Part shown: one piece after another, positions 959 to 19,466 of the stretch
Numbering within the stretch: the stretch's first letter is position 1
Layout of the letters: each line of letters starts with the position of its first letter
Position numbers and translations under genes: made by a program
Notes under the pieces: generated by a model
Databases searched by the model: none
What the model was told of the DNA's origin: nothing
What the model saw: the letters and a program-made list of their open reading frames with translations, nothing else
Virus record (IMG/VR): IMGVR_UViG_3300011438_000001
Direction: 5' to 3' (one strand)
Length of the DNA stretch: 20,000 bases
Source of the DNA: an uncultured virus (IMG/VR IMGVR_UViG_3300011438_000001)
Lineage: Duplodnaviria > Heunggongvirae > Uroviricota > Caudoviricetes

Positions 959-3900
959 TCTTACGACTTCTGCTTGCATTGTCCATAGTGTTTGTCATTC
1001 AAGCGCAAACGGACTTGATCGCCCCCGTCACCGTGCATGCCCCAGCTGGTGATGCATCTTCCATCATCAACTCTCGTTATGAAATCAAGGATAAGGACGG
1101 CGGGGCTCTCAAATGGGTCATGGAAGGAACATTAGGCGACCCAACGACCGGCACCACTCGTCTTTATTTTCAAGATTCCACCCCAGCCAAAATCTTACAG
1201 TTTGAACGTAAAGACACCGGCGTTTTAACGAACCGTGCCGTGCTCGACATGCACTGGATCCCGGCGATCACCGCCACCTACGACCTTGGCAAATTAACCG
1301 AAGTCTGGAACCACGCCTACATCGCCGAGACCCACACGACCAGCCTGCGCCCGATCATCGGATCGGATATTGAGGTTAGGGGGAATCTAATTTCTCCAGT
1401 CCTACTGAACCTTGGCAATGCAACCACCGGCCGGTGGGACACTCTTTACGTTACGAATATCGACTGCACGGGGATTTGCGGCAGCAGCTACTGGTCTAGG
1501 GATGCTTCTGGATTTATTTTCCCAACGACAACCGATGACGACGTGCGGGTCCAGAAATTGCAGCTGACCGACGACACGCTGCTCCCGTCGGTGTTCTTCA
1601 TGGACATCCGCGCAGAAATAACCACGATCTCCCCTGGCGTGCGGTTCATGGAATTTAGGGACAACGCCGGCGGGATAATGCTCAGGCTCCAGCGCCAGAA
1701 CGCCAGTGCCGTTGCCAACTACGCCATCTTCGACATGGACCTTCGTCCCCGCGTGGACGACAGTTACGACATTGGATCGGCAATCGGCGCCGTTACGACG
1801 CAACGCTGGCGGAATGCGCATCTCTCGGGCGATCTCTTCGCGGATGAACTAGGCTCAAGCGCAGATAGGATCTCCAAACTCTGGGTGACCGACATCGATT
1901 GCTCCGGTGTCTGCCCCACGGGTTATTGGGGCCGCGATTCCGGCGCCGGTTTTATCTATCCATTAACCACTACCGACGATGTGCGGATGGAGAAGTTGGT
2001 CCTCATGGACGACAATCTCCTGCCATCAACTTTGCTCTTTGATATTCGAGCTTCTATCTCTGTCATCTCCCCGGGCGAGCGTTACTTAGCCTTTAGAGAC
2101 AACGCTGGAGCTGAGATGTTGCGGTTGCAACGACAGATGGCAGGGGCGGTCGCCAACTACGCTTTGTTTGATATGGACCTTCGTCCCCTTGTCGATGATT
2201 CCTACGATATTGGATCGGCAATTGGTGCTGCAACAACCCAGCGCTGGCGCAACGCACATTTTTCTGGCGACATCTTCGCCAATGAACTAGGCTCAAGTGC
2301 CGACCGCATTTCAAAACTGTGGGTCACCGACATCGACTGCACAGGGGCGTGCGGCTTCTGGTCCCGCAATTCCGGCAGCGGCTATATCTACCCGACCACT
2401 ACGACCGATGACGTTCGAATGGAAAAGCTCGTCCTGATGGATGACAATGCTTTGCCATCTGTCCTGACCTTCGACATTCGCGCTTCAATCTCCACGATTT
2501 CTCCAGGCGTGCGTTATATGGCCTTCAGGGACAACGCTGGTGCGGAGATGCTTCGCCTCCAGCGGCAAGAGGCGGGGGCAACCGCCAACTACGCCATCTT
2601 CTCCATGGATCTCCGTCCCGACACCGATGATGCTCAGGACATCAGCTCAGTAGTTGGAGCCGCCTCCCTCAAGCGGTGGCGCAACGCGCAGTTCTCTGGG
2701 GCCATATCAATCTCCGACGCTACCCCAACCGTGCGCACCTCCATCACAACCGCCTCGACAACCTGGAGTGATAACGGCGGCACTTTGCAAGCCTCGGTCA
2801 ACACCACGAGTGGGGCAATCACCGGAAAGGGCGGATTCTACGCCGGCCCCAGCGTGGTGCAAGTGGTTGATGCAAATGCGCGATGGGTCGGCGCTGATAT
2901 CTTCTTCGCTGCTGACAATACTTACAACATCGGCGATGGCGGCACCGGCTCGCGTCCAGCGAACATCGGCGCTGGTTCCACGATCAATCTCTACAATGGC
3001 GCCACCGCAACGGTTCGCACGGCAATCACGACGGCATCAACGGTTTGGAATGATGCTTCTGGAGCTTTGAAGGCTTCAGTGAACACTGCTTCGGGCGCCC
3101 TATTTGGTGAAGGTGGAATCTACGTTGGATCTGGTGTGACCAACGTCATCAACTCATCTGCCCAATGGGTGGGGCATCTCTCATCTAATGTCACCAGCAC
3201 CGCAGATCTTGGGGCTGGCGGCATCTACTGGCGAGATGCTTACTTTGCTGGGACCGTCTTCGCCGCTAACCTTGGAAACTCTGGCGCTCGCATCACCAAG
3301 CTCTGGGTTACGGATATTGACTGCTCCGGGGTTTGTCCAGGTGGCGGGCTCCCCGTAGTTGACACCACCAGCATTGTCTCGGGATCGGCTGATGGGACTA
3401 AGCTCATGCGCTTTGAAGTAGATGGGGTCTCGGCATCGACCACTCGCGTGATGACCATTCCCAACACCGACCAGATCCTGGCCGGCCGGGATGTAGACAA
3501 TTCATTCTCGGCTGCACAATCCTTTGGCAGCACGATCGGCGTCACAGGCGCGGCAACCCTGAGCAGCACGCTTGGCGTCACAGGCGCCACCACCCTCAGC
3601 AGCACGTTGAGCGTAGGCGGCAATCTCACTTTCTCGGCTGACAACACCTACAACATCGGCACGACTTCCAGCGGGCGCCCCGCCAACATCGGCGCCGTCT
3701 CGACTATCGTCCTCTACCACACCACCAGCTCTTCAACTGCTCGTATCTACATGGACACGACCGGCCAGACCTGGAATAACAGTTCTGGAACTCCAAAGGC
3801 TTCCATCACCAACGCCACCGGGGCAATCGTCGGCGAAGGCGGTTATTCCACGGCTGCTGGAGTTTTTGTCGACTCCAACAGCCGATGGGCCACCAACCTT

Positions 3901-4233
3901 GACTTCTCAAGCGACAACGTCTACAACATTGGTGGCACTTCATCCAACCGCCCCGCCAACGTCAACGTCGTCTCGTCCATCAACCTCTACCACACGACCA
4001 GTTCATCAACCCTGCGCACTGCGATCACCACGGCATCAACCACCTGGAATAATTCATCCGGCACAATCATGGCTTCTGTGAACACATCGTCTGGCTCGAT
4101 CTCGGGGTCTGGGTTCTTCGTTGGGAGCATAGGCAGCGGGTTTGCCACCGGCCTGACGGGCACCTTTACTTCCTCCACGGCTTCCTGCACGGTTACGTTC
4201 ACCGGCGGGATCGCAGTTTCGAAAACATGCTGA
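955..4233 (+). CDS. Large modular tail-fibre/adhesin-like repeat protein (1092 aa) with N-terminal signal-peptide-like sequence
   Basis: Start reassigned from 913 to ATG 955 (ATGA overlap with upstream stop, GGAG at 941-944). It has recurrent D-x-x-Y-[DN]-[IL]-G...R-W fibre-type motifs, three ~145-aa repeats, four ~90-aa repeats and 12-aa shaft repeats. The C-terminal TGTFT...CTVTFTGGIAV resembles phage fibre/spike ends. Confidence 0.75.
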   Translation: MILRLLLALSIVFVIQAQTDLIAPVTVHAPAGDASSIINSRYEIKDKDGGALKWVMEGTLGDPTTGTTRLYFQDSTPAKILQFERKDTGVLTNRAVLDMHWIPAITATYDLGKLTEVWNHAYIAETHTTSLRPIIGSDIEVRGNLISPVLLNLGNATTGRWDTLYVTNIDCTGICGSSYWSRDASGFIFPTTTDDDVRVQKLQLTDDTLLPSVFFMDIRAEITTISPGVRFMEFRDNAGGIMLRLQRQNASAVANYAIFDMDLRPRVDDSYDIGSAIGAVTTQRWRNAHLSGDLFADELGSSADRISKLWVTDIDCSGVCPTGYWGRDSGAGFIYPLTTTDDVRMEKLVLMDDNLLPSTLLFDIRASISVISPGERYLAFRDNAGAEMLRLQRQMAGAVANYALFDMDLRPLVDDSYDIGSAIGAATTQRWRNAHFSGDIFANELGSSADRISKLWVTDIDCTGACGFWSRNSGSGYIYPTTTTDDVRMEKLVLMDDNALPSVLTFDIRASISTISPGVRYMAFRDNAGAEMLRLQRQEAGATANYAIFSMDLRPDTDDAQDISSVVGAASLKRWRNAQFSGAISISDATPTVRTSITTASTTWSDNGGTLQASVNTTSGAITGKGGFYAGPSVVQVVDANARWVGADIFFAADNTYNIGDGGTGSRPANIGAGSTINLYNGATATVRTAITTASTVWNDASGALKASVNTASGALFGEGGIYVGSGVTNVINSSAQWVGHLSSNVTSTADLGAGGIYWRDAYFAGTVFAANLGNSGARITKLWVTDIDCSGVCPGGGLPVVDTTSIVSGSADGTKLMRFEVDGVSASTTRVMTIPNTDQILAGRDVDNSFSAAQSFGSTIGVTGAATLSSTLGVTGATTLSSTLSVGGNLTFSADNTYNIGTTSSGRPANIGAVSTIVLYHTTSSSTARIYMDTTGQTWNNSSGTPKASITNATGAIVGEGGYSTAAGVFVDSNSRWATNLDFSSDNVYNIGGTSSNRPANVNVVSSINLYHTTSSSTLRTAITTASTTWNNSSGTIMASVNTSSGSISGSGFFVGSIGSGFATGLTGTFTSSTASCTVTFTGGIAVSKTC
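1456..2700 (+). repeat. Three tandem ~435-438 bp (145-146 aa) intragenic repeats
   Basis: Units begin at [ND]IDC codons at 1456, 1891 and 2329. Each contains WxRxxxxGFIYPTTTxDDVR, FRDNAGxxMLRLQRQ, ANYAxFxMDLRP and RWRNA. Confidence 0.95.
2704..4120 (+). repeat. Second repeat family (~90 aa; one partial and three full copies) plus 12-aa shaft repeats
   Basis: DNxYNIG...RPAN...IxLY...WN..SG...AS units have their DN codons at 2914, 3640 and 3913 (last two 273 bp apart), with a partial copy from ~2704. GVTGA[AT]TLSSTL occurs twice (36-bp unit) at ~3538-3609. Confidence 0.9.
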
Positions 4234-4757: not shown

Positions 4758-5362
4758 TTGAAGTGAAGAACCCCCTGAGGTTTGAAATCCTCTTGGGCAT
4801 GAGCATTGGCTTCTTCTCTGGCTTTGCTGGCGGCAACTTTATTGGCCGTTCACAAGGCTATGCTTCTGCCCTCAAGGAGGTCAAGCAAGAAGTCGACAAG
4901 CGGTTGGATGAGCTGGCCCCTGGATCAATCCCCATCCCCAAGAACTTCAAGGGGGAGGTCACCGTCGGCGGCAAAGCCAAGCCCAAATACAAATGGGATC
5001 TCAAATCCGTTCGATGCGAAGATGACGGGAAGGCAGTCAAGCAGGTCAACACTTTTGACCTGGGCTCCACTTCCCAGCCCTCCTGGACCTTGCACCGGGA
5101 CAATAGCAATGCCCCAGCAACATACTCCCTTGACTTGGACTTCAACACTTTTGACCCGGGTTCCGCGCCCCTGTCCGTCAACGAGAACAACTTCGTTGAC
5201 ATCAGGGGGCTCGAATCCGTGTTGGATAACGAACCCAGCGTCAAAAATATCCAGATCAACAAACCAAAGGGAAAAGAATGCAAACAACTCATGATTGCCT
5301 TTCGAGGCTTGATTATTCACGGCGTGGCGAGTGGAGAAACCGGATGCATATTCTCGTTTTAG
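4754..5362 (+). CDS. Membrane-anchored hypothetical protein (202 aa)
   Basis: Start ATG 4754 with GGAGG at 4742-4746 and an ATGA overlap. One N-terminal hydrophobic/Gly-rich helix (ILLGMSIGFFSGFAGGNFIG) precedes a short coiled coil and a soluble domain with three Cys. Confidence 0.7.
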   Translation: MIEVKNPLRFEILLGMSIGFFSGFAGGNFIGRSQGYASALKEVKQEVDKRLDELAPGSIPIPKNFKGEVTVGGKAKPKYKWDLKSVRCEDDGKAVKQVNTFDLGSTSQPSWTLHRDNSNAPATYSLDLDFNTFDPGSAPLSVNENNFVDIRGLESVLDNEPSVKNIQINKPKGKECKQLMIAFRGLIIHGVASGETGCIFSF

Positions 5363-5838
5363 TTCTTAGCCTGCTTGTCATACTTGCCCCGATGGCATCC
5401 TTGCTTGTGCCAACGGCAATGGCCGAGACTCCGACTCCTGCTCCTCCGCCAGCCACCAAGGTCGTCACGACGCCAGTCTCCACCTCCATCCCCCTCACTT
5501 CGGACCAACGTCTCGCCTATCTCGAAAAAGCTCTGGCGGCATCCAACGCCAAGCTGGAGCTTTTCTCTTTAGAAATCCGCCTCTTCCGCCTGCGGGACCA
5601 ATCGCAACAAGCAATTGAACGCTCCAGGCAGGCTGAGCAATTAGTTCAAGAGAAGCAAGACGCCAGCTTCCGCGAAGCTTATAAACCTGCCGAAGCCACC
5701 TTCCGCCAATCTGACGCAGAGTTGCAAGCCGCCACCACTGCAGCCAAGACGGCCCTCAAAGTGCCAGACGGTTGGGTGGTGTCTGCGGATGGCAAGGAGT
5801 TTAAACCGCCACCCCCACCCGCACCGCCCAAGAATTGA
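5344..5838 (+). CDS. Signal-peptide-bearing coiled-coil protein (164 aa)
   Basis: Start ATG 5344 with GGAG upstream. MHILVLVLSLLVILAPMASLLVPTAMA|E is followed by a Pro/Thr linker, a long coiled coil and a WVVSADGKEF + poly-Pro tail. Confidence 0.7.
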   Translation: MHILVLVLSLLVILAPMASLLVPTAMAETPTPAPPPATKVVTTPVSTSIPLTSDQRLAYLEKALAASNAKLELFSLEIRLFRLRDQSQQAIERSRQAEQLVQEKQDASFREAYKPAEATFRQSDAELQAATTAAKTALKVPDGWVVSADGKEFKPPPPPAPPKN

Positions 5839-5877
5839 TTTCCTCCCGAAACGAAAGGATTTAGAATCTAAACCACA

Positions 5878-6981
5878 ATGCCTCGCCAAACCATTGTTCC
5901 ACCGCTCCCCTCTAGTGGAATCGCCAACCCCAAAGATCTCTACAACGGCGATCACGAGACCCACCAAACTTCCCCACTCGCCTGGGCGAATCCGGAATTC
6001 CACGACCGCCATGCGTGGGCTTATGAAACCCTCGCCGGCGGGCAATCGACTCTCGGCCCCAACGCGCTCGTCGTCAAGGCCACGACGATCGGCTGGAATT
6101 CGGAAGAATCCGCTTCTCCCGGCGCCGCTCCTCACCGCGGCGACACCTTTGCCAAGGTCGAGATCGAAGGGACCAACGACACCGTTGGAGTCGACGGCAA
6201 CCCGCCCCGCGAGATCCGTGCCTACAGCTTCGACATCATGGTCAACCCTGACTACGTCGTCAACGATCTCTATTTTGAAAAGACCGGCAAGAAGGTTCAG
6301 TCTCCAAAATACCCTGGCTACGACGCCCGCAATCCTGCTGGCGGTCTTTCCCCGATCGGCCTCCCCTATCCCAACCATCCATGGGCGACGATCGACGGCG
6401 TTCCGTCCGACCGCTATTTCTGGCATGCCAAGACTGAGCCACTAGGTGGACCCGGTGGGCCGACCTATGAAGTCGGCGCAATCTTCGAAGCCCCTGAAGG
6501 GAACTATCAAAAGATCCGGCTGATCAAGACTCCCGGCTATGTCGAGGTCGGCGTCGGCTGGATCCCCGCGACGATGGAGGATTCCTGGGAACTGGTCTGG
6601 GTCCGGTCTGCCGGTCAATCGACGCCGTCCATGGTCACCAATCCCACGCAGGTCTTTGTCTCTGCCCCAACTCCGGTCCCGGGCGTGGACGTGACAAAGG
6701 CGAACCCGCCGGCTCCGCACGTCAGCGAGTATGACCAGATTCGATTGCTGAGGGAGAAGCTGGAAGCCATGATGGCGGAGTTGGCCAAGCGCGAGGAGGA
6801 GCTTGCCAAAAAGACGCCATCGCCGTTGCTGGACCCCAACACGGGAAAGCCCTTGGGTGCAGCTCCACTCCCTTTGGCGCCGGCGTCATCGACGTCACCA
6901 GCGCCGGTGTCACCAGCATCATCACTCCCTTTAGCCCCAGCCCTGCCATCGCCGACGATCAAAGAAGTTCGCAAGAAATAG
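5878..6981 (+). CDS. Hypothetical protein (367 aa), aromatic/Pro-rich N-terminal domain, short coiled coil, Pro/Ser/Ala tail
   Basis: Long ORF colinear with the operon, with AAAGGA upstream. No recognisable family. Confidence 0.7.
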   Translation: MPRQTIVPPLPSSGIANPKDLYNGDHETHQTSPLAWANPEFHDRHAWAYETLAGGQSTLGPNALVVKATTIGWNSEESASPGAAPHRGDTFAKVEIEGTNDTVGVDGNPPREIRAYSFDIMVNPDYVVNDLYFEKTGKKVQSPKYPGYDARNPAGGLSPIGLPYPNHPWATIDGVPSDRYFWHAKTEPLGGPGGPTYEVGAIFEAPEGNYQKIRLIKTPGYVEVGVGWIPATMEDSWELVWVRSAGQSTPSMVTNPTQVFVSAPTPVPGVDVTKANPPAPHVSEYDQIRLLREKLEAMMAELAKREEELAKKTPSPLLDPNTGKPLGAAPLPLAPASSTSPAPVSPASSLPLAPALPSPTIKEVRKK

Positions 6982-7014
6982 CCTTGGCTGCTGCGATAAC
7001 CACTGCATATGAAA

Positions 7015-7467: not shown

Positions 7468-7854
7468 ATGAGAGACTTCATTGCTGACTTCACGCTCCTT
7501 ATCCAGGCGACTGCCGCCAGTGGCCAGGGGCTTATCATGGCCCTTTCCAACTGGCTGCACTGGACGGCCGAAGCTCAAGCCGTTGCCCATGTGGGGTTGG
7601 GCATCATGTCGATGTGGCAGGCGATGATCGCCAAGTCGCATATGCCCAAGGAGCAGCAGGTGCAGGCTGCTGAGTTGAGTGAGCTGCTGGCCGCATATAG
7701 AAAGAATCAAGGCCTGTCGCCGGCGCCGACCGTCACAGTTACGGTGGACGAAACGCCACCAGCCTCGCCATCTACCTCACTATCAACTTCGCCAACTTCC
7801 CCAACTTCCCCAACTTCACCACCTTCACCCCCCAAATCTCCCCCGCAAATATAA
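7468..7854 (+). CDS. Possible holin-like membrane protein with Ser/Pro/Thr-rich tail (128 aa)
   Basis: GAGG lies upstream. Two moderately hydrophobic segments occupy the N-terminal 55 aa. The C-terminal (SPT)n tract is encoded by a 9-bp CCAACTTCC-type repeat at ~7783-7820. Confidence 0.5.
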   Translation: MRDFIADFTLLIQATAASGQGLIMALSNWLHWTAEAQAVAHVGLGIMSMWQAMIAKSHMPKEQQVQAAELSELLAAYRKNQGLSPAPTVTVTVDETPPASPSTSLSTSPTSPTSPTSPPSPPKSPPQI

Positions 7855-7864
7855 GGAGCCTCAA

Positions 7865-8035
7865 ATGCTTGGCACACCATTAGGACCGATCGACCTCGTC
7901 AAGCTTGCCACAGGTAAGGTGGTAAAGCTCGACCTCAAGGGCGCCGACATGACCATTGGCGATGTCGCGATCAAGGGGGATGCGCATATCGAACTGCAGA
8001 TCACCGATGTTGATTCTGCCAAGAAGGAAGGCTGA
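7865..8035 (+). CDS. Small hypothetical protein (56 aa)
   Basis: Strong AAGGAG at 7853-7858 precedes ATG 7865 (MLGTPLGPIDLVKLATGK...). The ORF fills the gap between its neighbours. Confidence 0.7.
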   Translation: MLGTPLGPIDLVKLATGKVVKLDLKGADMTIGDVAIKGDAHIELQITDVDSAKKEG

Positions 8036-8043: not shown

Positions 8044-8244
8044 ATGCACCCACATCCACTCGTCGTCTGGATCGGCGTTGCGCTCATCGCTGCTCTTGCC
8101 ATTTGGCTTCTGCAGCAACTCCCCCTTGACCCGTCGATCGTCCGTATAATCCGCGCCGTCATCATCTTCGTCGTGGCGGCTTGGCTCATCTCGGCGATCT
8201 GGGCCATGCTGTTTGGGGCTCCACTCCTCCCAATGCTTCGTTGA
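8044..8244 (+). CDS. Small two-TM membrane protein resembling Thivi_2564-family proteins (66 aa)
   Basis: Two hydrophobic helices are joined by QQLPLDPSIVRII, matching the recalled 'W....P...P...I...V' pattern of that family. AAGGAAGG lies upstream. Confidence 0.65.
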   Translation: MHPHPLVVWIGVALIAALAIWLLQQLPLDPSIVRIIRAVIIFVVAAWLISAIWAMLFGAPLLPMLR

Positions 8245-8261
8245 CCCAGTAAACCCCGACA

Positions 8262-8933
8262 ATGAGAATTGCTTGGTATGTCTCCCTCGTAGCCCAGGCG
8301 ATTCTAGCCCTGACCCTTTGGGAGCCCAATCGCCGCAACTGGTTCGTTCGCTATCTCGTCATTGCCCTCGCCGTCTCCATGATCCGGATTCAATTCTCCG
8401 GAGGCGCCCGCTATTTCTCCGACCACGACTATTGGTATGCGTGGACGGCTACTGAGCCCCTGCTCCTTGGCCTGCAATTCCTAGCCGTCGAGCAAGCCAC
8501 CCGCGGGACCACCCGCGATTTGTTCCACATCGCCATCATCATGGCGATCTCCTTCACGCTCTGGGCGATCCTTCTAACCGGCGACAACTGGTCGATTCTG
8601 CGCCGCGCCGCCCTCCTGCTCAAGCAAGCCGGCACCTTTGGCTGCTTCTCCTGCCTCTTCATCCCAGCCGTTATGCCGGCCGTCCTGCGCAACCTCTCGA
8701 TCGCCCGACTTACTATCCCGGCCCGCACCGACCTTTGGATGCTTTCTTATTTCACTCTCAACGGCCTCTCGCTAGTCGCCGCCCAGGTCACCATCACCCA
8801 GCCAGCCATTCAAGCCGTTTCCACAGTTCATCTCGTCCTAATCACCTGCCTGTTCATGACCTGGACCGTCTCCACGGTTTGGCAGCAGTTTCGTGTAGGG
8901 GTTCCTGCCTATGTCCGAAGTCCTGATCGATAG
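8262..8933 (+). CDS. Polytopic (~6-7 TM) membrane protein of unknown function (223 aa)
   Basis: Serial hydrophobic segments with no soluble domain. The motifs WFxxYL and YWYAWTATEPL resemble an uncharacterised 7TM family I associate with Acidobacteriota (recalled, not verified). Confidence 0.75.
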   Translation: MRIAWYVSLVAQAILALTLWEPNRRNWFVRYLVIALAVSMIRIQFSGGARYFSDHDYWYAWTATEPLLLGLQFLAVEQATRGTTRDLFHIAIIMAISFTLWAILLTGDNWSILRRAALLLKQAGTFGCFSCLFIPAVMPAVLRNLSIARLTIPARTDLWMLSYFTLNGLSLVAAQVTITQPAIQAVSTVHLVLITCLFMTWTVSTVWQQFRVGVPAYVRSPDR

Positions 8934-9198
8934 AGAAACACCAAATATGCCACCAGCATCGCTTCATGAAATAAGCAGATCTCTTGCGCTGTTGCACCAG
9001 CGGATCGAGCATAGCGAGGACCGGCAGGCCGGCAAGTGGGAAGTCTACAACGATCGCCAGGATCGTATTGACAAGCATTTAGAATCCACCGACTGTGATG
9101 TTGGCGAGTTGCGCAAGTTCATGATCCAGCTGAAGACGATTGGAGTTATTATCGGGATTGTCTGGCCGCTGGTGGTTAAGTATCTGCTGCCGAAATAA
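8911..9198 (+). CDS. Holin-like protein: coiled coil plus single C-terminal TM helix (XhlA-type architecture; 95 aa)
   Basis: A charged heptad region is followed by TIGVIIGIVWPLVVKYLLPK. An alternative start exists at ATG 8947. Confidence 0.6.
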   Translation: MSEVLIDRETPNMPPASLHEISRSLALLHQRIEHSEDRQAGKWEVYNDRQDRIDKHLESTDCDVGELRKFMIQLKTIGVIIGIVWPLVVKYLLPK

Positions 9199-9237
9199 TT
9201 TTGCAAAGAAACGAAAGAGGGAAAGGACAAAGCAACC

Positions 9238-9438
9238 ATGAAAGCACACTTCAAGAAATATCGAGACGGCTTCACCTTGCGGGTCTCTGGCCTGAGCAAG
9301 ACCCAGATACTCAAGGCAATCAGCGCCATCAAAGGTGATCTGGTCGCCGCTCAGGGGTTGGGGCAAGAGCGAGTGACCATGGCGGCTTTCGATGATCCAC
9401 TTCCTTCATGTGCGCCGGATGAGCCCCGCTGCTCTTGA
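9238..9438 (+). CDS. Small protein (66 aa), candidate peptide precursor ending in FDDPLPSCAPDEPRCS
   Basis: A purine-rich leader with GAGG/AAAGGA precedes ATG 9238. The N-terminal part is basic/amphipathic and the C-terminal 16-mer is acidic and Pro-rich with two Cys. Confidence 0.65.
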   Translation: MKAHFKKYRDGFTLRVSGLSKTQILKAISAIKGDLVAAQGLGQERVTMAAFDDPLPSCAPDEPRCS

Positions 9439-9478
9439 ATCCTGGCACCAAATCTGGCTCGTAACTTCTAGCCACGCA

Positions 9479-9514: not shown

Positions 9515-11380
9515 ATGGGTGGATATGTTCAGCCGATGGGTGGTGGTGGACGGGGCGGCGGGCGGTTCAACCCGGGGCTTCCCCAACGGCGCATGTCGCT
9601 GATGAATGAAGGCGGCAGCGGTGGCGGGGGCAGCTACGCTGATCCTTATGGCGAAGGGCTCTCAGCCCCTCCCGGCTATGGCCTCGACGCCGGCGGGATG
9701 GCCCCAATGTCTGGTGGTGGCTCCGGTGGTCCACCTCCTGACGCCGTTGGCGGCGGGTTCAACGGCGGCGCCTACCGCCCAGCTCAAGCTCCCGGCCCCA
9801 TCCGCGGCTCCACTCCCTACCGCCCGGCCAACGGTCTCTCCTCTATGGAGAACTGGTCCAATGAACAAGACCGTGCAGCCGGCGGTGCGGATGTTCTAGA
9901 CCAAGGGATCAGGGATTTTTATAATCAAGCCCAAGAACAAGCCGCCCGTTACGGTGGGCAGGCTGATGAATACTTCGCCCAGCTGATGCAAAACGCGGGC
10001 TATTCTCCACAAGAAGCCCAGCAGATCATGCGCGAGTCCGAGACCAACGGGCTCAAGATGGGCGATGAGGAATTTAATTCAAGGTTCCAAACCGAAGGTG
10101 AGCGTGGAGAAATCCGCGGCAATCCTTATGGGGCAAGGGATTCATTTGCCCGGGATAGTGGGACAACAAGAGACACCTTCTACGACAACAACAACAAGGT
10201 CTCGCAAACCGTCAACGCGGCTGCTGATGATGTTCTTGGCTCCACCAATGCCTATAGAAAGTCTCTGGGCGACACCGCGAATCGCTACAACGGCGCCGTT
10301 GACCAAGCGAACTTTGATGTGGATCCTGCATATTCCGGCAGAGTCTCAAGTCTCGATTCTGAAGCCGGCCGGGATCTTTCTCTCTCCGATCGCTACATGG
10401 AGAAGCGGGGCTGGTCTGAAGGGGATCTTGATAAAGTTTCTGGACGAGCTGCCCGGCAAGTCGGTGGTGCTTACGCATCCGAAGTCGATGCGATCAACCG
10501 CCAAGCTGCTGCCAGTGGCAACACCAACCCGATGGCTCTTGCCGCCGCTCGCCTGCGTGCTGCGCGATCCGGTGCAGTAGACCAAGGGGACGCGATCGCC
10601 AACGCAGAAGCCGCCGGCCTCAACACGGCCAAGCTTGCAGAGCAGGATATCGAAGGGACCAGACTTGGTGCGGCAGGGCAGCGGATCCAAACCCGCGCTG
10701 GTCTTGCCTCCGACGTCGAAGATCGCCGGTTCCGCGGGGAAGAGGCCGGGATGGGCGCAAGATTCCATGCGGCTGATGCCACCACGGCGGCGGAACGTGC
10801 TGCCAACGACGCTGGATTTGCCGGCGCCCGCTACACCGGGGATCTCCGGACTGGTGCTGCAGAGCGCACTCGAGAAGCAGCCACCGGCCTTGATGAACGC
10901 ACCGCTAAGACCCAGGCTGATTACGAACGCGCCGGTGAGCAAGCAGCATCCGATCGCGGAACCCACCTTGCCGACACCCGCGCCACCATCGCCGCCAACA
11001 CCGGCCAGGAGCGATTCTCCCGGGGCGCCTACGCCAACGATGCATCGTCTGGCCGCGCAAGAACTGTTGCAGATGCCCGTCGTGCTGACGAGACGGCCGG
11101 CCGTGGTTACTACGCCGGGCAGGCTGGCGACTGGGCCAACCGCGGGCAGACTGCACTGGGTCAACGCACATCCGCTTATAGTGCAGGAACCGCAGCGACC
11201 CAAGGTGCAGCTCGAGGTTATGGAAATGCTTATGAGGCCAAGCAGCAACGGCCTGGAACGTTTGGCAAAATTCTAGGTGCTGCAACCGGGATTCTTGGCG
11301 GGCTTAATCCCACTGGAACTCTAGGCAGAGTAGCCGGTGCTGCGGCCGGTGGTGCTCGCGGCATGGGCAGAGGTTACTAA
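9515..11380 (+). CDS. Putative internal virion/DNA-ejection (pilot-like) protein (621 aa)
   Basis: Gly/Ala/Arg/Gln-rich and apparently helical, with a Gly/Pro/Met-rich N-terminus and C-terminal glycine-zipper amphipathic segments (GTFGKILGAATGILGG...GRVAGAAAGGARG). It is the first of three large genes in the arrangement typical of P22 gp7/gp20/gp16 or T7 gp14-16 (analogy only). Confidence 0.6.
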   Translation: MGGYVQPMGGGGRGGGRFNPGLPQRRMSLMNEGGSGGGGSYADPYGEGLSAPPGYGLDAGGMAPMSGGGSGGPPPDAVGGGFNGGAYRPAQAPGPIRGSTPYRPANGLSSMENWSNEQDRAAGGADVLDQGIRDFYNQAQEQAARYGGQADEYFAQLMQNAGYSPQEAQQIMRESETNGLKMGDEEFNSRFQTEGERGEIRGNPYGARDSFARDSGTTRDTFYDNNNKVSQTVNAAADDVLGSTNAYRKSLGDTANRYNGAVDQANFDVDPAYSGRVSSLDSEAGRDLSLSDRYMEKRGWSEGDLDKVSGRAARQVGGAYASEVDAINRQAAASGNTNPMALAAARLRAARSGAVDQGDAIANAEAAGLNTAKLAEQDIEGTRLGAAGQRIQTRAGLASDVEDRRFRGEEAGMGARFHAADATTAAERAANDAGFAGARYTGDLRTGAAERTREAATGLDERTAKTQADYERAGEQAASDRGTHLADTRATIAANTGQERFSRGAYANDASSGRARTVADARRADETAGRGYYAGQAGDWANRGQTALGQRTSAYSAGTAATQGAARGYGNAYEAKQQRPGTFGKILGAATGILGGLNPTGTLGRVAGAAAGGARGMGRGY

Positions 11381-11384
11381 CGAA

Positions 11385-13265
11385 ATGGGAATCTTCGACG
11401 TTCTGCGCGGCAATAGTAGGACATCCTTCCGGACGCCTCCTTTCATCAATCCTGGAATGCGACCTCGCCCAACCGACATGGATGCCGATGACATGGGCGG
11501 CAGGACTGATTCCGACATGGATGACGCCGGCATGGGCAGCAGGTATGGCGGGACTCCAGCTTATCAACAGCAGCGGGCTGAAGAGGATCTGTCGTCTATG
11601 ACGAATCAGGATCATGCATATCCCGCGGCGCAAACCCATCAACCTACTCCACCTCCTGCCTATAATCCACCGCCACCGGATGCTGATGGCGGGGCTGGTG
11701 CATCAGCAGGTGGAGGCTCAGGCGCCCTGGGCTCCCTCCGCACCGCTGCCCGCCCCCGCCGGTCCTACGACCCCAACGACCTCCCGCGCCTGCCCTCCCC
11801 AGCCCAGGACGACTATGATCAATTCCTCCTGCGCCAAGCGCAATCCCGCCCAGGGGATGACGATTCCCCCGTGGCTAAGTCGCCATCCATCTGGCGGCGG
11901 ATCGGCGCCATGGCCCTCGGCGGGGCAGCGGGATATGCGAGCAACACTCCAAACGCCGTCTCGCCATATGCACTAGACCGGGCAGAGGAAGGAATCCTTT
12001 ATGGTGGCAGTGGCGAGCCCGAAAGATTGCAGCAGATCGCCCTCACCAAAGCTTCTCTTGCTGAACGCGCCACCCGCGAGAATGCCTCGCTCGACGACAG
12101 AATGAAATTGCAGCAGCATCAAAACCAAATGGAGCACTGGGATGCTCTCGCCGAGAACGCCCGCGAGATGACGGCCGCTTCCGCTGATGCCCGTGCCGCG
12201 GCTACTGAGGCTCGCAATATCGCCACCAAAGAACGTGAGCAGCGCGATCGCCAGACTGCGATGAATTCTCAAAACGCTCTGCAATATCAAATCGGCAAGG
12301 GCGATATGATTCCTGCGGGGCAGATTCCAACCCACCAAATGGATCTGGGGATGCCCCCTGGCGGATGGCAAGGCCCGGTGGACGACAACGGGCAATCGAG
12401 TGGTCCATTATCCGCCCCTCCATCTGTGCCTTCTCTTCCTCCAGGAATCTCCAGCTCCATTCCGATCAACGTGCAGGAGCCGGGCTGGAATAAATTCACC
12501 ATGCAACAGTTGAATCCGGATGGTTCTTATAAGCCCCTCGAGATGGCGGCACCGTCTGCAGAACGACGTGCGAAGAATGCCGGCGACATGGCTGAGGCGA
12601 AGAACGAAGTGGATGTTCCGGCGAATCAACGGGCGATGTTCGGCGGCGCAGCCAAGGTCGACAAGCGAATCTACGACGCCACCTTGAAACGTGATTCATC
12701 GGCGGCACGGGATGCAATCAATAAAGAAATCCAGCAAGGCCACGACCAAGCCAGCCGGGCTAGGTCTGGTGTCATGCTGCAAGCAGCGCAGCTCCGCACC
12801 ACCATCGGCGGGGCCAAAGCCATGAACCCTGCCCAAATCCAATCCTCCCTGAACGCCATTGCCCGCATGAAGAACAGCTCGGTCGGCGCGGAAGCAATTG
12901 CCCGCAGGACTGCCGCCACCGCGCATGCCCGTCTTGCCTCCACCCAATACCAAATGTCGCCTGAGGAATATACTACGACCAAAACGGCAATTGATAACGC
13001 CGAAAAGTCTGCGGTGGAAGAAGCGAATAAGATGCAGCAATACTTCGACACCATGGAGCAGGAGGTTCGGGCGAAGGCTGTGGCTGCGGCCAATCCCAAT
13101 CCAGCATCGCCTGCCCCCGGGGCTGCGCCTGGAGCTGAAGATCCAAACGCCATTCGCAACCGGCTGAAGCTTCCACCTGCGGGGAACCAGCCCAACCCGG
13201 GGCTCAACCCGCCGCCCGGTGGTGGCGCAGGATTGCAAGGCAACCGCAGCATCTTTGGCCGTTAG
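11385..13265 (+). CDS. Putative internal virion/DNA-ejection protein (626 aa)
   Basis: Start reassigned to ATG 11385 (GAGG at 11370-11373). Low-complexity Pro/Gly regions alternate with Ala/Gln/Glu coiled coils, with one amphipathic motif PSIWRRIGAMALGGAAGY. Confidence 0.6.
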   Translation: MGIFDVLRGNSRTSFRTPPFINPGMRPRPTDMDADDMGGRTDSDMDDAGMGSRYGGTPAYQQQRAEEDLSSMTNQDHAYPAAQTHQPTPPPAYNPPPPDADGGAGASAGGGSGALGSLRTAARPRRSYDPNDLPRLPSPAQDDYDQFLLRQAQSRPGDDDSPVAKSPSIWRRIGAMALGGAAGYASNTPNAVSPYALDRAEEGILYGGSGEPERLQQIALTKASLAERATRENASLDDRMKLQQHQNQMEHWDALAENAREMTAASADARAAATEARNIATKEREQRDRQTAMNSQNALQYQIGKGDMIPAGQIPTHQMDLGMPPGGWQGPVDDNGQSSGPLSAPPSVPSLPPGISSSIPINVQEPGWNKFTMQQLNPDGSYKPLEMAAPSAERRAKNAGDMAEAKNEVDVPANQRAMFGGAAKVDKRIYDATLKRDSSAARDAINKEIQQGHDQASRARSGVMLQAAQLRTTIGGAKAMNPAQIQSSLNAIARMKNSSVGAEAIARRTAATAHARLASTQYQMSPEEYTTTKTAIDNAEKSAVEEANKMQQYFDTMEQEVRAKAVAAANPNPASPAPGAAPGAEDPNAIRNRLKLPPAGNQPNPGLNPPPGGGAGLQGNRSIFGR

Positions 13266-13291: not shown

Positions 13292-16200
13292 ATGTCAGCC
13301 TTCCCTTTTCCCCTTGGCCCACCGCGATCCACCTCCATGAGCGCCCGCCGCTCGATCCGCGACCTGGGCCGGGAGACCCGCAGCAAATTCCCTGGCCAGT
13401 TCGACGACATCCCCGACGATGCGGCATTGGGAAGGGCGACTAAGGAGACTTATCCGGATCAGCATGCCGATGTTGTGGATGATGATCCATTTCCGGATTT
13501 TAGTGGACCTTCCCAACCCAACGCCCCGCCAGCCTTTCGTCCTCCACCTACTCAAGGCAACGTTCTATCCTTTGGTCCACCTTCCCCGCAGCAGGTGCAA
13601 TATGCTCGTGCAACAACCCCCAAGCGTGAGCCTTTTCGATCTACTGGCGCTGACTCTGCTTTGCCTCTTGGTCCACCGCCCCGCTCGCCAGGGCAGGTAG
13701 ACCCGGTTCGCAGTCGTCCTGGCGATGATCCTTATGCCGCGGCGCGGCTCAACATCGGCGCTGATGAAGCATTAGGCGCACGGGAAGCTCCAGGTCTCGC
13801 CGGCGCCTACGAAAAGCACCAGATCCGCGAGGTCGGCGCCGGTGCTTATCAAACCCTGACCGGGACCGACCCAGACGCTCCATGGAATGCGCCTTCCAGC
13901 CCGGTCGATTCAAGATTTGGTGGACTGAACCGGGCTGCGGTTGGGCTGGGGATGGCCTTTGCCCCAGTTGCCCTTCCACTTGCCGCTGGAGCTGCACCTG
14001 CCGCCACTGCTGCGGGCGCGATTGCCGGCATGCCAATCCAGGCTGGTGTCGAGCATGGCCTGCGATATGCCGGCGCTGGGCCTGGGGTCTCTGCGGCCGC
14101 TGGGACACTGGCTGGCGGATGGGCTGGGGCAAGAGCCGGCAGATGGGCAGCTGGCCGATTTGGTGGAGGCGTAGAACCACCACCGCCTGTTGACGACGGC
14201 AGTGGCGTCCATGTGGATCCTACCCGGCCGCGCCCGACCGGCCCGCACCATGAGCCTACGCCTGTAAGTCAGGCAAGAGCCGACGATATCGAAGGTTCGT
14301 ACTACATGATGGCGCAGCCGATGGGCGACCGGCCACCATATTCATTCCAGGAAATTCCGTCGCTGCCAACGCAATCGCGAGCAACCCGGCCACCAGGGTT
14401 TCAACGACTGCCGCCACGCCAAGCTCCTGGGGCTGGCCCTGGTCCCGCGGCGGTCCCATCTGCCGTCCCCAACGAGACCGCTGGCGTTGCAGGCGCCACT
14501 GCTCCAACTGGCATCCCCCTAGAACTCGCAGCCCCTCCTCCTTATCGTCCAGGGCTGCAACCGCGCCAATCCGCCTCGACCATCATTCCACCGTCTCGTC
14601 AACTTGGTCCAGCTCCAATCCCAACCCTCCCGATCCAAGGCGCCGGCCCGGTTCAAGGATCCCTGCTCCGCGCCCCCGTGACCTACGATCCCCTGGGCAC
14701 CTCCCAGATCCCAGGCTCGCCCCCTGGCGCCCGCCCCCCGATCTTCCCCTACGATCCTTATGATCCAATCCAAGGTCCAACGCCTCGTCCACCTACTGTG
14801 CTGCCGCGCAATGCGCAAGGGCAACCGATCTGGTCCGAGAATCCAACGACCACCCAGCAGATCAATCTGCCGGAACCTATGGGTCCAGCCGCACAAGGCG
14901 GCGGCGGGCTTCCCAGGCCTGCACCGCTAGCTCCACCTGGGGCGACGGCGTTTTTAGAATCGCCTAATCCTAACCCCCTCTCGCCATCCGGTCTCCCGGG
15001 CTGGGATCTCCGACGCAACCGCATGATGGCCGGCGATGTTGCGGCAGATCCACGATCTCAATTGTCGCAACCCGGGATTGCCAAGCCTCCATCGCCTGCT
15101 CCACTGGCCCCGCCGGCGATCGGTGCTTCTCCACTCCCCCCGCCACCGGCCGTTCCCAAGGCTCCACTGGCGCCAACGACCCCTCCTCCCCGTCCGGTCT
15201 CCGCCCTGGATCTCGAGAGGCTGGGCATGGAACCTGCGCCTCCAACTCAAGCTCCACCATCTGGAGTCCTGCAACTAGACCCAGCTCGACGTGCCAAGAC
15301 CCTGGCAGAGCTGATCGCCTTCCGCGACGGCAAGAAGGGCTATGTCGGCGGCGGTCCCGGCGGGCAGAAGGCTCCGACGAAATTCGAGGATCTCCCATCG
15401 GAATCCAAACTGGCAATCCATCGCCAGATTGATCAGCTCAAAGCTGCCGATCCTTCCTACGTGGCGCCCAAGCCTTCAGTTCCTGCATTTGCCGCGGCCA
15501 AAGCGCGGGGCCTCCGCGATCCAACTCCTTCTCCTTCTGCTGCGCAGATTGCTAATCCCGTAACGGCTCCTGCCACAACAATGACCAACGGGATGAAGAC
15601 CGGCATCCTCACCCGGCTAGGTGATCTTGCCGCCAGTGTCAAGAACGTTGCCGTTAGAAACTTCTCCAACCTGGAGAGGTATGGACGGGAGCCTTCGGCT
15701 AAGGCAACAGAGGCTATGGGCGATAACCCCGCCGGCGCCAAGACGGCTTATGCGATCGCGCAAGGGATCGGTGCTGCACGCACGGCCGCTAAAGTCCGGA
15801 TGGCCACCTGGATTACTGACGCAAATAAAGCCGCCGGCCATGATGCAAATGCTGCCGTCAATGCATCTCCTGTTCAACCTGCACTGGACGCAATGACCTA
15901 TTCCAGGATCGTCGGCAAGGGCAATCAATATGAGCGGCTCGCCAACGTGATCGAGCAATCCTCCGACCCCGATCTTCGCACGGCAAATGAAACTTGGCTC
16001 TCCGACATCCTGGGCGCCGTTGATTCGGTCGCCTACGATTCGCCTTCCGGCACCTACGGATCCGGCATGCGCGGCAAGGTTGCAGAAATGATGGCGGAAG
16101 GGAAGCTTGATGATGCCCGCGCTTACGTCTCTAACGCATTTCGTGGACTCGCGGCAACCGTTAGAGAAAGGCAGCTGCCAAAGTTCCACGACGCCATGGT

Positions 16201-18412
16201 CGAGAAGCACGGCAAGACTTTCCAGGAGATCATCGCCGATCCTCAAGTCGCCGCAGCAATCGAATCCTGGAAGGGGCCGAATGGACCTGGATCGGCATTC
16301 GCCAAGTTCCATTCCCTCAACGACGGGTTCTTGTCTGAAGACATGGGCCCGTTGAACGCCTACATCCCCATGGTGAATGCGACGGAAGCTTCCAAGATGG
16401 CAGCGAAGACCGGGCTGGCTTCGCTCTCCACTATGGATGATTTGATCCCGCCCAACCCTACAAATAATTTCATGACCGGTCTCGGCACCTATGAAGCGAC
16501 CGTTAATGAGATTCGCCAGAAGCTTGGTGGCGCTATTGCCGCCAATTCCAAGGGCGGGTTGATGAAAGAATTGCGAGCCCTTGGTCTTTCCAAGCCAGTC
16601 GCCATGGAGAAGGCTCTTGCCGCTGCTGATGCGCCTCCTGGTGCAGCTCCAGGCGCCGGCACGGTCATCACCTACATCCCGCCTCCAGGTTCTAAGGGCG
16701 CCTCCTCCCAGCCTAGATCCTGGTCTGGCAACGACCTCGTGACCGTCGAGATCGACCCCACCAACCCCAAGATCAAAGAGACGATGCCCAATTGGCTCTG
16801 GAAGGAGATCGAGCCTCTCTATAAGAAGAGCGATTTCGGCACCCGCGCCACCCGCTCGGTCAATCCCGTGACCTTCGAAGAAGAAGTCCATTGGAAGAAC
16901 CTTGGGGATAAGATTGCCAATGCGGCGTTGGCCACAGAACTTTACGGCCCCATCGACAATGCATATCACGCTGCCAACGTGGTCGGCGGATTTCTATTCT
17001 CCGTTCCCAAGATCGCGCAAGGCCCGATGGGGAGACTCATCGCTAATTCCCCCGCGACCAAGAAACTTTCCCTTGGCCTGCAAGTTGCCAGCGACGTGAT
17101 CGACACCGCTCGCGGCAAGGGCGGGACGCTGGATCCAAAGAATTCCATGGATCTAAACGCGATGGCGGAACTTGGTCTTCTCCCTTCCAAATATCTATCC
17201 TCCACCACCAACAAAGGGACTGGAGCTGCGTTGCAAATTCCATCTGGACGGACCCCTGGCCGCGCCATAGAAGCCGCGATGTATGGGCCGGATGGGCTCG
17301 ACGCCAGACTCCGCCTCCGCGCTTACCGCGCCCTCAAGGCAATGACCCCGGATGGCCGCACCGACACGCCTGAATTCCACAAGGCCTTCGAAGGGCTGTT
17401 GATCTACAATCAAACGGCGCAATCTCGCATTGAAAGGGCTTTGAAAGGATCCGCCGCCGGGCAATTAATGGCCCCGTTCGTCACCGCGGGATTTGGATTT
17501 CTAAAGACCGGCACCAAGGCGGTCACTGGCCAGAACGCCATGCCTTATCGGTTTGAGCATTCTGCGATGCTTGGACCAAAATATGGTGCGCAGGACGTGC
17601 CCTATCCGCAATACATGATGGACAAACTCGAGGCCCAATGGTCTGGTGGAGTGCTCGGCGCCACGATCATGTGGATGGGCATGCACAAAGCGGTGACCGG
17701 GAAAGATCCCTGGGATGATCCATCTGCCCGGCTCTTTGAAGTTCCTGTTCCCGACTCCATTCGAAAGTCCCCGCAGGGCAAATGGTATTGGGGCGATAAT
17801 CCCAAGACGCAATATATGTCGATGCGCTTCCAGACCATGGCGCCGGTGCGCGGGGCTCAAGCAACCGGGGTCAAGGGGTTTGTGGACACGCGCATGATCG
17901 GCGGGACGCCTACGCAAGCCGTTGAATCCGGCGCCAAGGACATGATCAATGCGATCGCGCATCCCCTTCTTGGTGGCCCCCTTCCATCAACCGCCATTCC
18001 CATGATCCTTGGGAACCATGCGTATCTACAATCGTTGCGTGACGCCAACGGCCGGCCGCAGCCGCAGTTCCTCTCCACCCTTCCCACCTACGAATCCCTG
18101 CCGAAGAACATCCTGGCCCGGGGCGGTCGTGGACTGGCCGGCGTGAATCCATTGATTGAAGATGCAGAATCTGGATTGATGGCGGCTTACCCAGAGTTCT
18201 TTGGCCAGATCCCGGGTTTCGAGGGGGCGCCGGATCGCTACGATGAAGGGCAGAAGGCTTTAAGAACGATGATGGATTATGTCTTCGCCGGCCATGCAGG
18301 CAAGTCGCGGCATCTGCCAGCTGAGCAGCAGAGGATCATCAAGCAGCAGATTGGGATGAAGAAGGGCGAGGCCAAGCAGACGAATCAGAAGCGGCTGCTG
18401 GGCGCCCGATAA
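13292..18412 (+). CDS. Large putative internal virion/ejection protein (1706 aa)
   Basis: The N-terminal 'RSKFPGQFDDIPDDAALGRATKETYPDQ' resembles the KYPxYxDxxDxEL motif recalled from large phage internal proteins. A Gly/Ala hydrophobic segment and a very long Pro-rich region precede a helical C-terminal ~900 aa. It is the last gene of the virion operon. Confidence 0.65.
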   Translation: MSAFPFPLGPPRSTSMSARRSIRDLGRETRSKFPGQFDDIPDDAALGRATKETYPDQHADVVDDDPFPDFSGPSQPNAPPAFRPPPTQGNVLSFGPPSPQQVQYARATTPKREPFRSTGADSALPLGPPPRSPGQVDPVRSRPGDDPYAAARLNIGADEALGAREAPGLAGAYEKHQIREVGAGAYQTLTGTDPDAPWNAPSSPVDSRFGGLNRAAVGLGMAFAPVALPLAAGAAPAATAAGAIAGMPIQAGVEHGLRYAGAGPGVSAAAGTLAGGWAGARAGRWAAGRFGGGVEPPPPVDDGSGVHVDPTRPRPTGPHHEPTPVSQARADDIEGSYYMMAQPMGDRPPYSFQEIPSLPTQSRATRPPGFQRLPPRQAPGAGPGPAAVPSAVPNETAGVAGATAPTGIPLELAAPPPYRPGLQPRQSASTIIPPSRQLGPAPIPTLPIQGAGPVQGSLLRAPVTYDPLGTSQIPGSPPGARPPIFPYDPYDPIQGPTPRPPTVLPRNAQGQPIWSENPTTTQQINLPEPMGPAAQGGGGLPRPAPLAPPGATAFLESPNPNPLSPSGLPGWDLRRNRMMAGDVAADPRSQLSQPGIAKPPSPAPLAPPAIGASPLPPPPAVPKAPLAPTTPPPRPVSALDLERLGMEPAPPTQAPPSGVLQLDPARRAKTLAELIAFRDGKKGYVGGGPGGQKAPTKFEDLPSESKLAIHRQIDQLKAADPSYVAPKPSVPAFAAAKARGLRDPTPSPSAAQIANPVTAPATTMTNGMKTGILTRLGDLAASVKNVAVRNFSNLERYGREPSAKATEAMGDNPAGAKTAYAIAQGIGAARTAAKVRMATWITDANKAAGHDANAAVNASPVQPALDAMTYSRIVGKGNQYERLANVIEQSSDPDLRTANETWLSDILGAVDSVAYDSPSGTYGSGMRGKVAEMMAEGKLDDARAYVSNAFRGLAATVRERQLPKFHDAMVEKHGKTFQEIIADPQVAAAIESWKGPNGPGSAFAKFHSLNDGFLSEDMGPLNAYIPMVNATEASKMAAKTGLASLSTMDDLIPPNPTNNFMTGLGTYEATVNEIRQKLGGAIAANSKGGLMKELRALGLSKPVAMEKALAAADAPPGAAPGAGTVITYIPPPGSKGASSQPRSWSGNDLVTVEIDPTNPKIKETMPNWLWKEIEPLYKKSDFGTRATRSVNPVTFEEEVHWKNLGDKIANAALATELYGPIDNAYHAANVVGGFLFSVPKIAQGPMGRLIANSPATKKLSLGLQVASDVIDTARGKGGTLDPKNSMDLNAMAELGLLPSKYLSSTTNKGTGAALQIPSGRTPGRAIEAAMYGPDGLDARLRLRAYRALKAMTPDGRTDTPEFHKAFEGLLIYNQTAQSRIERALKGSAAGQLMAPFVTAGFGFLKTGTKAVTGQNAMPYRFEHSAMLGPKYGAQDVPYPQYMMDKLEAQWSGGVLGATIMWMGMHKAVTGKDPWDDPSARLFEVPVPDSIRKSPQGKWYWGDNPKTQYMSMRFQTMAPVRGAQATGVKGFVDTRMIGGTPTQAVESGAKDMINAIAHPLLGGPLPSTAIPMILGNHAYLQSLRDANGRPQPQFLSTLPTYESLPKNILARGGRGLAGVNPLIEDAESGLMAAYPEFFGQIPGFEGAPDRYDEGQKALRTMMDYVFAGHAGKSRHLPAEQQRIIKQQIGMKKGEAKQTNQKRLLGAR

Positions 18413-19216: not shown

Positions 19217-19466
19217 CAGCCTTCTTCTCCTTTGTGCTTGAATCCTTTATGTGCGAACAGATCGGGCAGCACTTCCCACAGAATATCTCAACCGTGATCT
19301 GCCTGCCATGCCTCCCCTGCACCGGCTTGCTCACATAATGCGCGGGGTTGTTGGGATCCCCCGCCGGGATCCGCCGGCTAAACGCATCAGGATGAACCAC
19401 AGAGGCGTCTCCAGTGCAGAACACGCCTAGCGGATGCGGCATGTAGGTCGTGCAGGTTGCGATCAT
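19194..19466 (-). CDS. Small Cys-rich putative zinc-binding protein (90 aa)
   Basis: N-terminal C...C and C-terminal CGKCCPIC. The start overlaps the upstream stop (ATGA at 19463-19466). Confidence 0.55.
   Translation of the reverse strand: MIATCTTYMPHPLGVFCTGDASVVHPDAFSRRIPAGDPNNPAHYVSKPVQGRHGRQITVEIFCGKCCPICSHIKDSSTKEKKADANADPR

Follow-up and report, generated by a model that had tools for sequence, protein, structure and literature searches.

A compact group of three genes in the genome of an uncultured tailed phage is the subject of this report. The phage is known from the IMG/VR record IMGVR_UViG_3300011438_000001 (Caudoviricetes), and the stretch of DNA analysed, 20,000 nucleotides (nt) long, is called the window. 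The three genes span ~1.2 kb and encode a seven-transmembrane (7TM) protein of 223 amino acids (aa), a 95-aa protein anchored in the membrane by its C-terminus (C-anchored) and a small soluble protein of 66 aa that ends in a tail with cysteines and prolines. The 7TM protein and the small protein were found as a conserved pair in a second viral contig, where an endolysin gene lies nearby. By sequence comparison, the 7TM protein is the founding member of an unnamed family. Late in infection, the three proteins probably act jointly at the host membrane. The module is read, tentatively, as a membrane part of the lysis cassette of tailed phages that exerts accessory control of lysis, either antiholin-like or as a holin partner, with the small protein acting from the cytoplasm. 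An earlier sequence-only reading had instead proposed a phage-encoded peptide signal and its 7TM receptor, flanking a holin-like gene and setting the time of lysis.

The gene trio in the window and in a second phage

The gene of the 7TM protein (8262..8933, plus strand; from the list of open reading frames (ORFs) and an AlphaFold2 model) shares 23 nt (8911-8933) with the gene of the C-anchored protein (8911..9198, plus strand; ORF list and scan for transmembrane (TM) segments). The gene of the small protein follows (9238..9438, plus strand; ORF list, codon score and a homologue in the second contig). All of the ORFs were found as the sequence-only reading had described them, including the overlap of the first two. 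Coding was assessed with a codon-usage score trained on five long window genes; for pieces of 66 codons drawn at random from these genes, the mean score is +0.40 in frame and -0.49 out of frame. The score prefers the annotated frame in all three genes and in the ORF that precedes them (8044..8244). The 66-aa ORF scores +0.12 when read in frame, and its two alternative frames score -0.46 and -0.40. This ORF had also been described as well provided with a ribosome-binding site, and the description holds: a purine-rich ribosome-binding stretch (9213..9227, plus strand, read from the sequence) contains GAGGG (9217-9221) and AAGGA (9223-9227) and ends 10 nt short of the ATG at 9238.

The second locus was found in IMG/VR. 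Scans with the sub-alignment A3 and with the alignments A4 and A9 all returned one contig (as L003, L004 and L008), which is referred to here as L003, the hit of A3. It is 26.7 kb long with an estimated completeness of 38%, a size that suits a phage genome. L003 encodes a tape measure protein (E 3e-63), a major tail protein, Neck1 and a beta-helix tailspike, as well as exonuclease VIII and SbcC-like genes, and by this gene content it is a tailed phage. Its 7TM homologue (5998..6579) has 193 aa and is 28% identical to the window protein (E 5e-24). Next come the gene of a 59-aa protein that has its TM helix at the C-terminus (6601..6780) and a small ORF (6771..6953) whose likeliest start is the ATG at 6777, preceded by GGAGG. 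The order of genes is therefore the same in L003 as in the window, namely a 7TM protein, a small C-anchored protein and a small protein (58-60 aa in L003). The stop of the 59-aa ORF and the start of the small ORF overlap as ATGA.

The small ORF of L003 aligns over its full length with the 66-aa protein of the window (35% identity, E 2e-7), and the two have VSGLSK, an FD[DE]PxPxC core and both cysteines in common. At several conserved codons the two genes differ at synonymous positions, which argues for selection on the protein. When all ORFs of the window were compared with all ORFs of L003 by BLASTP, only the 7TM protein and the small protein were shared, plus their antisense shadow. The shared pair lies in the same order and orientation and within 1.2 kb in both loci. 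The middle C-anchored proteins hold the same position and have no sequence similarity to each other. The linkage of 7TM and small protein put forward in the sequence-only reading was thus borne out in the only distant relative read (one of one locus). On the evidence of these two gene sets, the two- to three-gene module appears to move between otherwise unrelated phage late regions.

Upstream of the module in L003, a 133-aa protein (5216..5617) is a Peptidase_M15_3 endolysin (Pfam E 4e-11; PHROG 894, E 2e-24) and is encoded two genes 5' of the 7TM gene. Between the two lies the gene of a 107-aa coiled-coil protein (5647..5970, plus strand). This protein has a TM helix at its N-terminus, matches no family and is a candidate holin or inner-membrane spanin (i-spanin). 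The linkage of the pair rests on two independent loci and the lysis context on one. Directly after the stop of the small ORF, L003 also contains a GC-rich inverted repeat (6954..7000; GGGGCCG...CCGGCCCC) with no T run, which may mark the end of the module transcript. No comparable hairpin was seen after the small ORF of the window.

The membrane proteins and the small protein

Hydropathy (Kyte-Doolittle) gives the 7TM protein six to seven hydrophobic segments. An AlphaFold2 model built from 43 sequences has a predicted local distance difference test score (pLDDT) of 91.4 and a predicted template modelling score (pTM) of 0.87, and contains seven helices (residues 2-19, 27-46, 54-79, 85-105, 112-143, 158-176 and 180-219). 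An earlier model from 8 sequences was poor (pLDDT 57.6) and was not used. Over the 43 sequences, loops 1-2, 3-4 and 5-6 and the C-terminal tail together carry 6.5 lysines plus arginines per protein against 0.26 on the other side, which places the N-terminus outside and the C-terminus inside. Seven TM helices in this orientation give the protein a receptor-like topology, that of G-protein-coupled receptors (GPCRs), and invite comparison with GPCRs of the adhesion and secretin classes and with stand-alone 7TM receptors of bacteria. Its C-terminal tail is just ~17 aa long and the protein thus has no output domain. Both points agree with the sequence-only reading, which had described about seven TM segments and no cytoplasmic output domain. 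At the outer start of helix 5 is a conserved WPxxRRA, contrary to the positive-inside trend, and the conserved Y57, W61, T64 and W110 are also on the outer half of the protein. An 11-residue insertion in cytoplasmic loop 5-6 (8685..8717, residues ~142-152) is absent from all seven close homologues described next.

These homologues were found by a word-based search of 5.8 billion proteins. They have 61-71% identity and 209-212 aa, and they sit on short contigs (980-5128 bp). A profile search of 1.84 billion representatives gave 33 matches at E<=0.001, of which 18 reached <=1e-10 and 4 reached <=1e-30. The 33 representatives have 128-256 aa each, so the family carries no extra domain. No column is invariant in the 43-sequence alignment, and only W5, L15, L32, W61 and Y163 reach 90%. 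The family is small and was seen on metagenome contigs only, in records of Logan, ENA, JGI and NCBI. The longest of these contigs (62,691, 61,968, 54,213, 44,729 and 37,356 bp) are in the size range of phage genomes, not of chromosomes. The next in length have 21,890, 20,049, 18,342 and 11,489 bp.

The protein had been expected to fall outside known enzyme and transporter families, and this agrees with the searches: Pfam matched none of the 43 family members beyond scattered chance-level matches, and the 7TM profile had no match among PDB sequences. The sequence-only reading had further stated that Acidobacteriota genomes often pair such 7TM proteins with short precursors. No such pairing was found: 185,579 species genomes were searched in two pattern scans, neither of which returned a relative. 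IMG/VR scans with the alignments A1, A7 and A8 returned no relative either, and the alignments A2 and A6 were too diverse to yield search patterns. Two loci from a metagenome scan were set aside as chance pattern matches, one inside a 1861-aa protease-like protein and one in a protein like those of the major facilitator superfamily (MFS). The Atlas neighbours of the 7TM protein were unnamed clusters at <=0.87 and one that is 10% HisKA_7TM at 0.80, all below the level of trust. An unrelated 7-TM moron adjoining int has been described in mycobacteriophages (excerpt of PMC5679791).

The C-anchored protein has one TM segment at its C-terminus (residues 71-94), with KYLLPK alone following or ending it, and a soluble, helix-prone N-terminal part of ~70 aa. 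Gene callers chose a later ATG for this ORF (the 83-aa P0010). Its only homologue, P0011 (83 aa, 54% identity, E 3e-19), has an identical C-terminal anchor and begins with MSEILVDR where the window protein begins with MSEVLIDR, which supports the upstream start. The longest contig is 5128 bp for both P0011 and the 7TM homologue P0003, and this hints that the two genes are co-located on one contig. Relative to P0011, the window protein has a 12-residue insertion on the predicted cytoplasmic side (9016..9051, residues ~36-47).

The C-anchored protein is the one that had been called holin-like. Holins are short, cross the membrane one to four times and end in a short, charged tail. The 95-aa protein departs from this architecture in that its single TM segment is at the extreme C-terminus, after ~70 soluble residues, and no Pfam, PHROG or NCBIfam family, holins included, matched it at E<=0.1. 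The term is therefore a description and not a finding. A candidate that fits better by architecture is the 66-aa ORF directly 5' of the 7TM gene (8044..8244, plus strand), which has hydrophobic helices at residues 5-23 and 39-57 and a codon score of +0.18 in frame against -0.64 and -0.27. Its matches are sub-threshold only (PHROG 23151, E 0.01; NCBIfam Thivi_2564, E 0.0026, under its cut-off). On its architecture, this two-TM ORF is the best holin candidate of the region. A 260-nt contig identical to 8118..8377, covering the 3' end of the two-TM ORF and the 5' start of the 7TM gene, occurs in a sediment metatranscriptome; carry-over of DNA is possible, and the contig is no proof of transcription.

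The small protein has a basic N-terminal half with VSGLSK and a net acidic C-terminal tail, FDDPLPSCAPDEPRCS (9388..9435, plus strand; alignment A4). The tail motif shared with L003 is FD[DE]PxPxC(x0-1)APx[DE]P(x0-1)C. A six-frame search of the window found this motif a single time; L003 also has one copy, and the loci L006 and L007 have none. As the sequence-only reading would have it, the cysteine motif is conserved: both cysteines are kept in the two divergent copies and also in P0012, a near-identical variant with 1 substitution that keeps the tail motif. P0012 and the protein itself were the only matches of the word-based search, and a search of PDB sequences was empty. Conservation is not confined to the tail. 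VSGLSK is conserved too, and the protein thus looks like a small protein and not like a leader plus core. A low-confidence Atlas model (pLDDT 0.46) resembles small alpha/beta domains. Atlas look-alikes were unnamed small proteins with scores of 0.90-0.91 and serve as leads only. No signal peptide, lipobox, hydrophobic or TM segment or motif like that of twin-arginine translocation (Tat) was found in the 66-aa protein, and the expectation that it is exported was not upheld.

Possible functions of the module

The proposed role in accessory lysis control draws on where the genes lie and on the properties of their products. The setting is taken to be that of lysis because an M15 endolysin gene lies two genes upstream of the 7TM gene in L003, and in the window the 7TM gene is directly preceded by the two-TM ORF. 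The module would be transcribed alongside late genes for tail and lysis proteins, and its expression is likely to be coupled because of the 23-nt overlap of the 7TM and 95-aa genes in the window and the ATGA overlap in L003. Three partners would come together at the host inner membrane: the 7TM protein with its N-terminus out and its C-terminus in, the C-anchored protein and the soluble small protein. The last would remain in the cytoplasm, since it has no export signal and its tail is acidic while the 7TM protein presents a strongly basic surface on its inner side (6.5 lysines plus arginines). The acidic tail would then dock either on that surface or on the part of the C-anchored protein that faces the cytoplasm, and the module would modulate the timing of lysis, antiholin-like or as a partner of the holin. 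The mutual binding of the three proteins, the location of the small protein and the effect on lysis timing are what we infer.

Two characterized systems offer partial parallels. In phage P2, LysA is an antiholin encoded by a separate gene, has four TM domains and delays lysis (as described in an excerpt of PMC3091744). A likeness is seen in L003, where the polytopic 7TM homologue has a gene of its own two genes after that of the endolysin; in the window no endolysin was recognised. The 7TM protein differs from LysA in having seven helices and not three or four, in matching no PHROG lysis family and in having two small conserved partners. In phage T4, lysis inhibition involves the holin T, the periplasmic antiholin RI and the cytoplasmic RIII, and the holin is tuned by small accessory proteins from either side of the membrane. 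RIII, a small cytoplasmic antiholin co-factor (excerpt of PMC8385771), can be likened to the small protein, for which the cytoplasm is the predicted location. The sequences are unrelated to those of the T4 proteins, no T-type holin is present, and T4 has no central 7TM protein. The small protein also recalls the outer-membrane spanins (o-spanins) of the Rz1 type, which are small, proline-rich products of lysis-cassette genes with functionally important cysteines. It differs from Rz1 in that it has no lipoprotein signal or lipobox and in that its Pro/Cys part makes up only the last 16 residues. When every plus-strand start was scanned in the window (6900-9600) and in L003 (4900-7100), no ORF for a lipoprotein-type o-spanin was found near the module. 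The sole matches of the lipobox scan were two internal starts within the L003 endolysin gene.

Several observations weigh against a role in lysis control. Scans with Pfam, PHROGs and NCBIfam recognised no endolysin, holin or spanin family in the window, and for this reason the lysis context rests on one relative. The lysis setting suggested in the sequence-only reading thus stands for L003, with its endolysin two genes upstream, and not for the window, in which no endolysin was recognised. Lysis cassettes and tail-fibre regions are also places where morons and exclusion genes gather. The conserved Y57, W61, T64, W110, P111, R114 and R115 cluster on the periplasmic side of the 7TM protein, and an outward-facing site fits them better than docking in the cytoplasm alone. 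Just two independent loci have been read. Finally, the word-based search gave the 66-aa ORF no homologue despite the seven close 7TM homologues, whose contigs are 980-5128 bp long.

Among other explanations, the module could be a superinfection-exclusion or host-membrane-modifying cassette of the late region. In that case it would keep out the DNA of other phages or change the physiology of the envelope, and it would take no part in lysis. Membrane exclusion proteins are often encoded near tail genes, and the module lies among tail-fibre- or tailspike-like genes in both loci (a 1106-aa repeat protein in the window, the beta-helix tailspike in L003). It also shifts between otherwise unrelated gene sets, as accessory cassettes do. 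Set against this are the endolysin gene that adjoins the module in L003 and the result of PADLOC, whose families matched none of 12 proteins; moreover, exclusion in known cases usually relies on one small membrane protein or lipoprotein and not on a translationally coupled set of three genes. Exclusion is on balance unlikely. It is very improbable that the small protein is merely an independent phage protein beside an unrelated membrane moron, with no common function. Only two loci were read, the sequence of the middle gene is not conserved between them, and no homologue of the small ORF was detected next to the seven close 7TM homologues, all of which would suit such chance adjacency. Yet the 7TM and small proteins are the only two that the loci have in common, they keep the same order and orientation within 1.2 kb, and start and stop codons overlap inside the module.

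The remaining explanations give the small protein a life as a peptide precursor. In the model of signal and receptor favoured by the sequence-only reading, the acidic Cys/Pro C-terminal peptide reaches the periplasm or the medium, is sensed by the 7TM protein and sets the timing of lysis. The co-conservation of the two proteins across 28% and 35% identity is in keeping with it, as are the retention of both cysteines and of FD[DE]PxPxC, the GPCR-like topology, and the endolysin near the module in L003. On the periplasmic side, R114, R115 and the aromatic residues run against the positive-inside trend and could pair with an acidic peptide. The model has to contend with a small protein that lacks a signal peptide, lipobox, TM segment and Tat-like motif, and whose N-terminal part is conserved too and resembles small alpha/beta domains in the low-confidence Atlas model. 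Family scans recognised no peptidase or exporter in either locus, and neither an output domain of the 7TM protein nor a downstream regulator was seen. The likeness to arbitrium, an analogy drawn in the sequence-only reading, lies in a short phage ORF that would act through its C-terminal end. The arbitrium peptide AimP is made with a signal peptide, and its receptor AimR is a cytoplasmic protein with tetratricopeptide repeats (TPRs). In the module, the small protein lacks a signal peptide and the candidate receptor sits in the membrane; none of 18 window proteins matched a TPR or AimR family. Peptide signalling of this kind is considered quite improbable. A more elaborate version, for which the chance is smaller still, envisages a peptide-sensing module of freshwater-sediment phages. 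The leaderless small protein would be freed, for instance through holin lesions or by the lysis of neighbouring infected cells, and its disulfide-closed acidic tail would be bound by the Arg-Arg pair on the periplasmic face of the GPCR-fold 7TM protein. The signal would pass through the C-anchored partner to the holin, so that the timing of lysis would track nearby burst cells. Least credible of all is an AgrB-like system in which the 7TM protein is a membrane-embedded processing and export enzyme and the small protein is its AgrD-like substrate, to be released as a modified peptide. The layout is comparable: AgrD is a leaderless precursor with an amphipathic head and an acidic tail, and here a multi-TM protein of ~190-220 aa is paired with a leaderless short protein, basic and amphipathic at its head and acidic with prolines in its tail. 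AgrB has a conserved catalytic histidine and cysteine. In the 7TM family, by contrast, AgrB or peptidase families of Pfam match none of the 43 members, and the near-invariant residues (W5, L15, L32, W61 and Y163 only) include no His, Cys, Glu or Asp for catalysis. The cysteines of the small protein lie downstream and not upstream of the F-D junction, and family scans found no sensor kinase or response regulator in the window as counterparts of AgrC and AgrA.

Surrounding genes and significance

Plus-strand ORFs are packed from position 1 to ~18.4 kb of the window, and a scan of the window for tRNA genes found none. Searches of 18-19 window proteins against Pfam, PHROGs and NCBIfam gave sub-threshold matches only. 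No match was found among GenBank phages to the whole window (megablast) or to the 1706-aa protein described below and both 7TM proteins (tblastn). An exact match to a 40-mer taken at the start of the window was absent from IMG/VR. The window proteins are recorded on three metagenome contigs, the longest of 76,180 bp. The stretch was found in freshwater-sediment and groundwater metagenome runs, and fragments identical to the window are present in three more sediment runs (X3, X4 and X5).

Upstream of the trio, a gene at 913..4233 (plus strand) encodes the 1106-aa repeat protein, which has a hydrophobic N-terminus and several long internal repeats, including RWRNAH.SGD.FA.ELGSSADRISKLWVTDIDC.G.C. 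Its PHROG matches are weak only (tail fibre, E 3e-4; phrog_13925, E 2.7e-4), and it is probably a tail fibre. Closer to the trio, a 128-aa protein (7468..7854, plus strand) has a Ser/Pro/Thr-rich tail and a weak match to PHROG 22388, a 'membrane protein' (E 4e-4). It is followed by a 54-aa ORF (7871..8035, plus strand) with the top codon score of the region (+0.52). The codon score is poor (-0.03) for a longer ORF that overlaps it (7679..8035) and is unlikely to be the true gene.

Downstream are three very large orphan genes on the plus strand, encoding proteins of 621 aa (9515..11380), 642 aa (11337..13265) and 1706 aa (13292..18412), in all of which Gly, Ala, Pro and Gln are abundant. The genes of the 621-aa and 642-aa proteins share 44 nt, and around residue 200 of the 1706-aa protein there is a hydrophobic stretch rich in Gly and Ala. 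None of the three matched a family, a record of the phage database or a relative in IMG/VR, where a scan with the 1706-aa protein was made. The coding strand flips near 18.5 kb, beyond which two minus-strand ORFs (18599..19216, 205 aa; 19463..19894, 143 aa) have no family match. The 205-aa ORF was considered as a lysozyme or endolysin and was rejected, as it matched no family.

Phage lysis cassettes are usually described as combinations of a few parts, namely holin, antiholin, endolysin and spanins. Literature searches on phage lysis cassettes, holins and GPCR-like or seven-transmembrane phage proteins found no description of a module of the kind reported here, and the 7TM family and the module are undescribed in the family libraries and in the literature searched. 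A receptor-shaped 7TM family tied to a protein with a Cys/Pro tail, next to an endolysin, would represent a new type of lysis regulator or, less likely, a phage signalling device at the level of the membrane. A functional result on the trio would assign a function to a dark phage family, and it would bear on whether GPCR-like folds serve as sensors in the viruses of bacteria.

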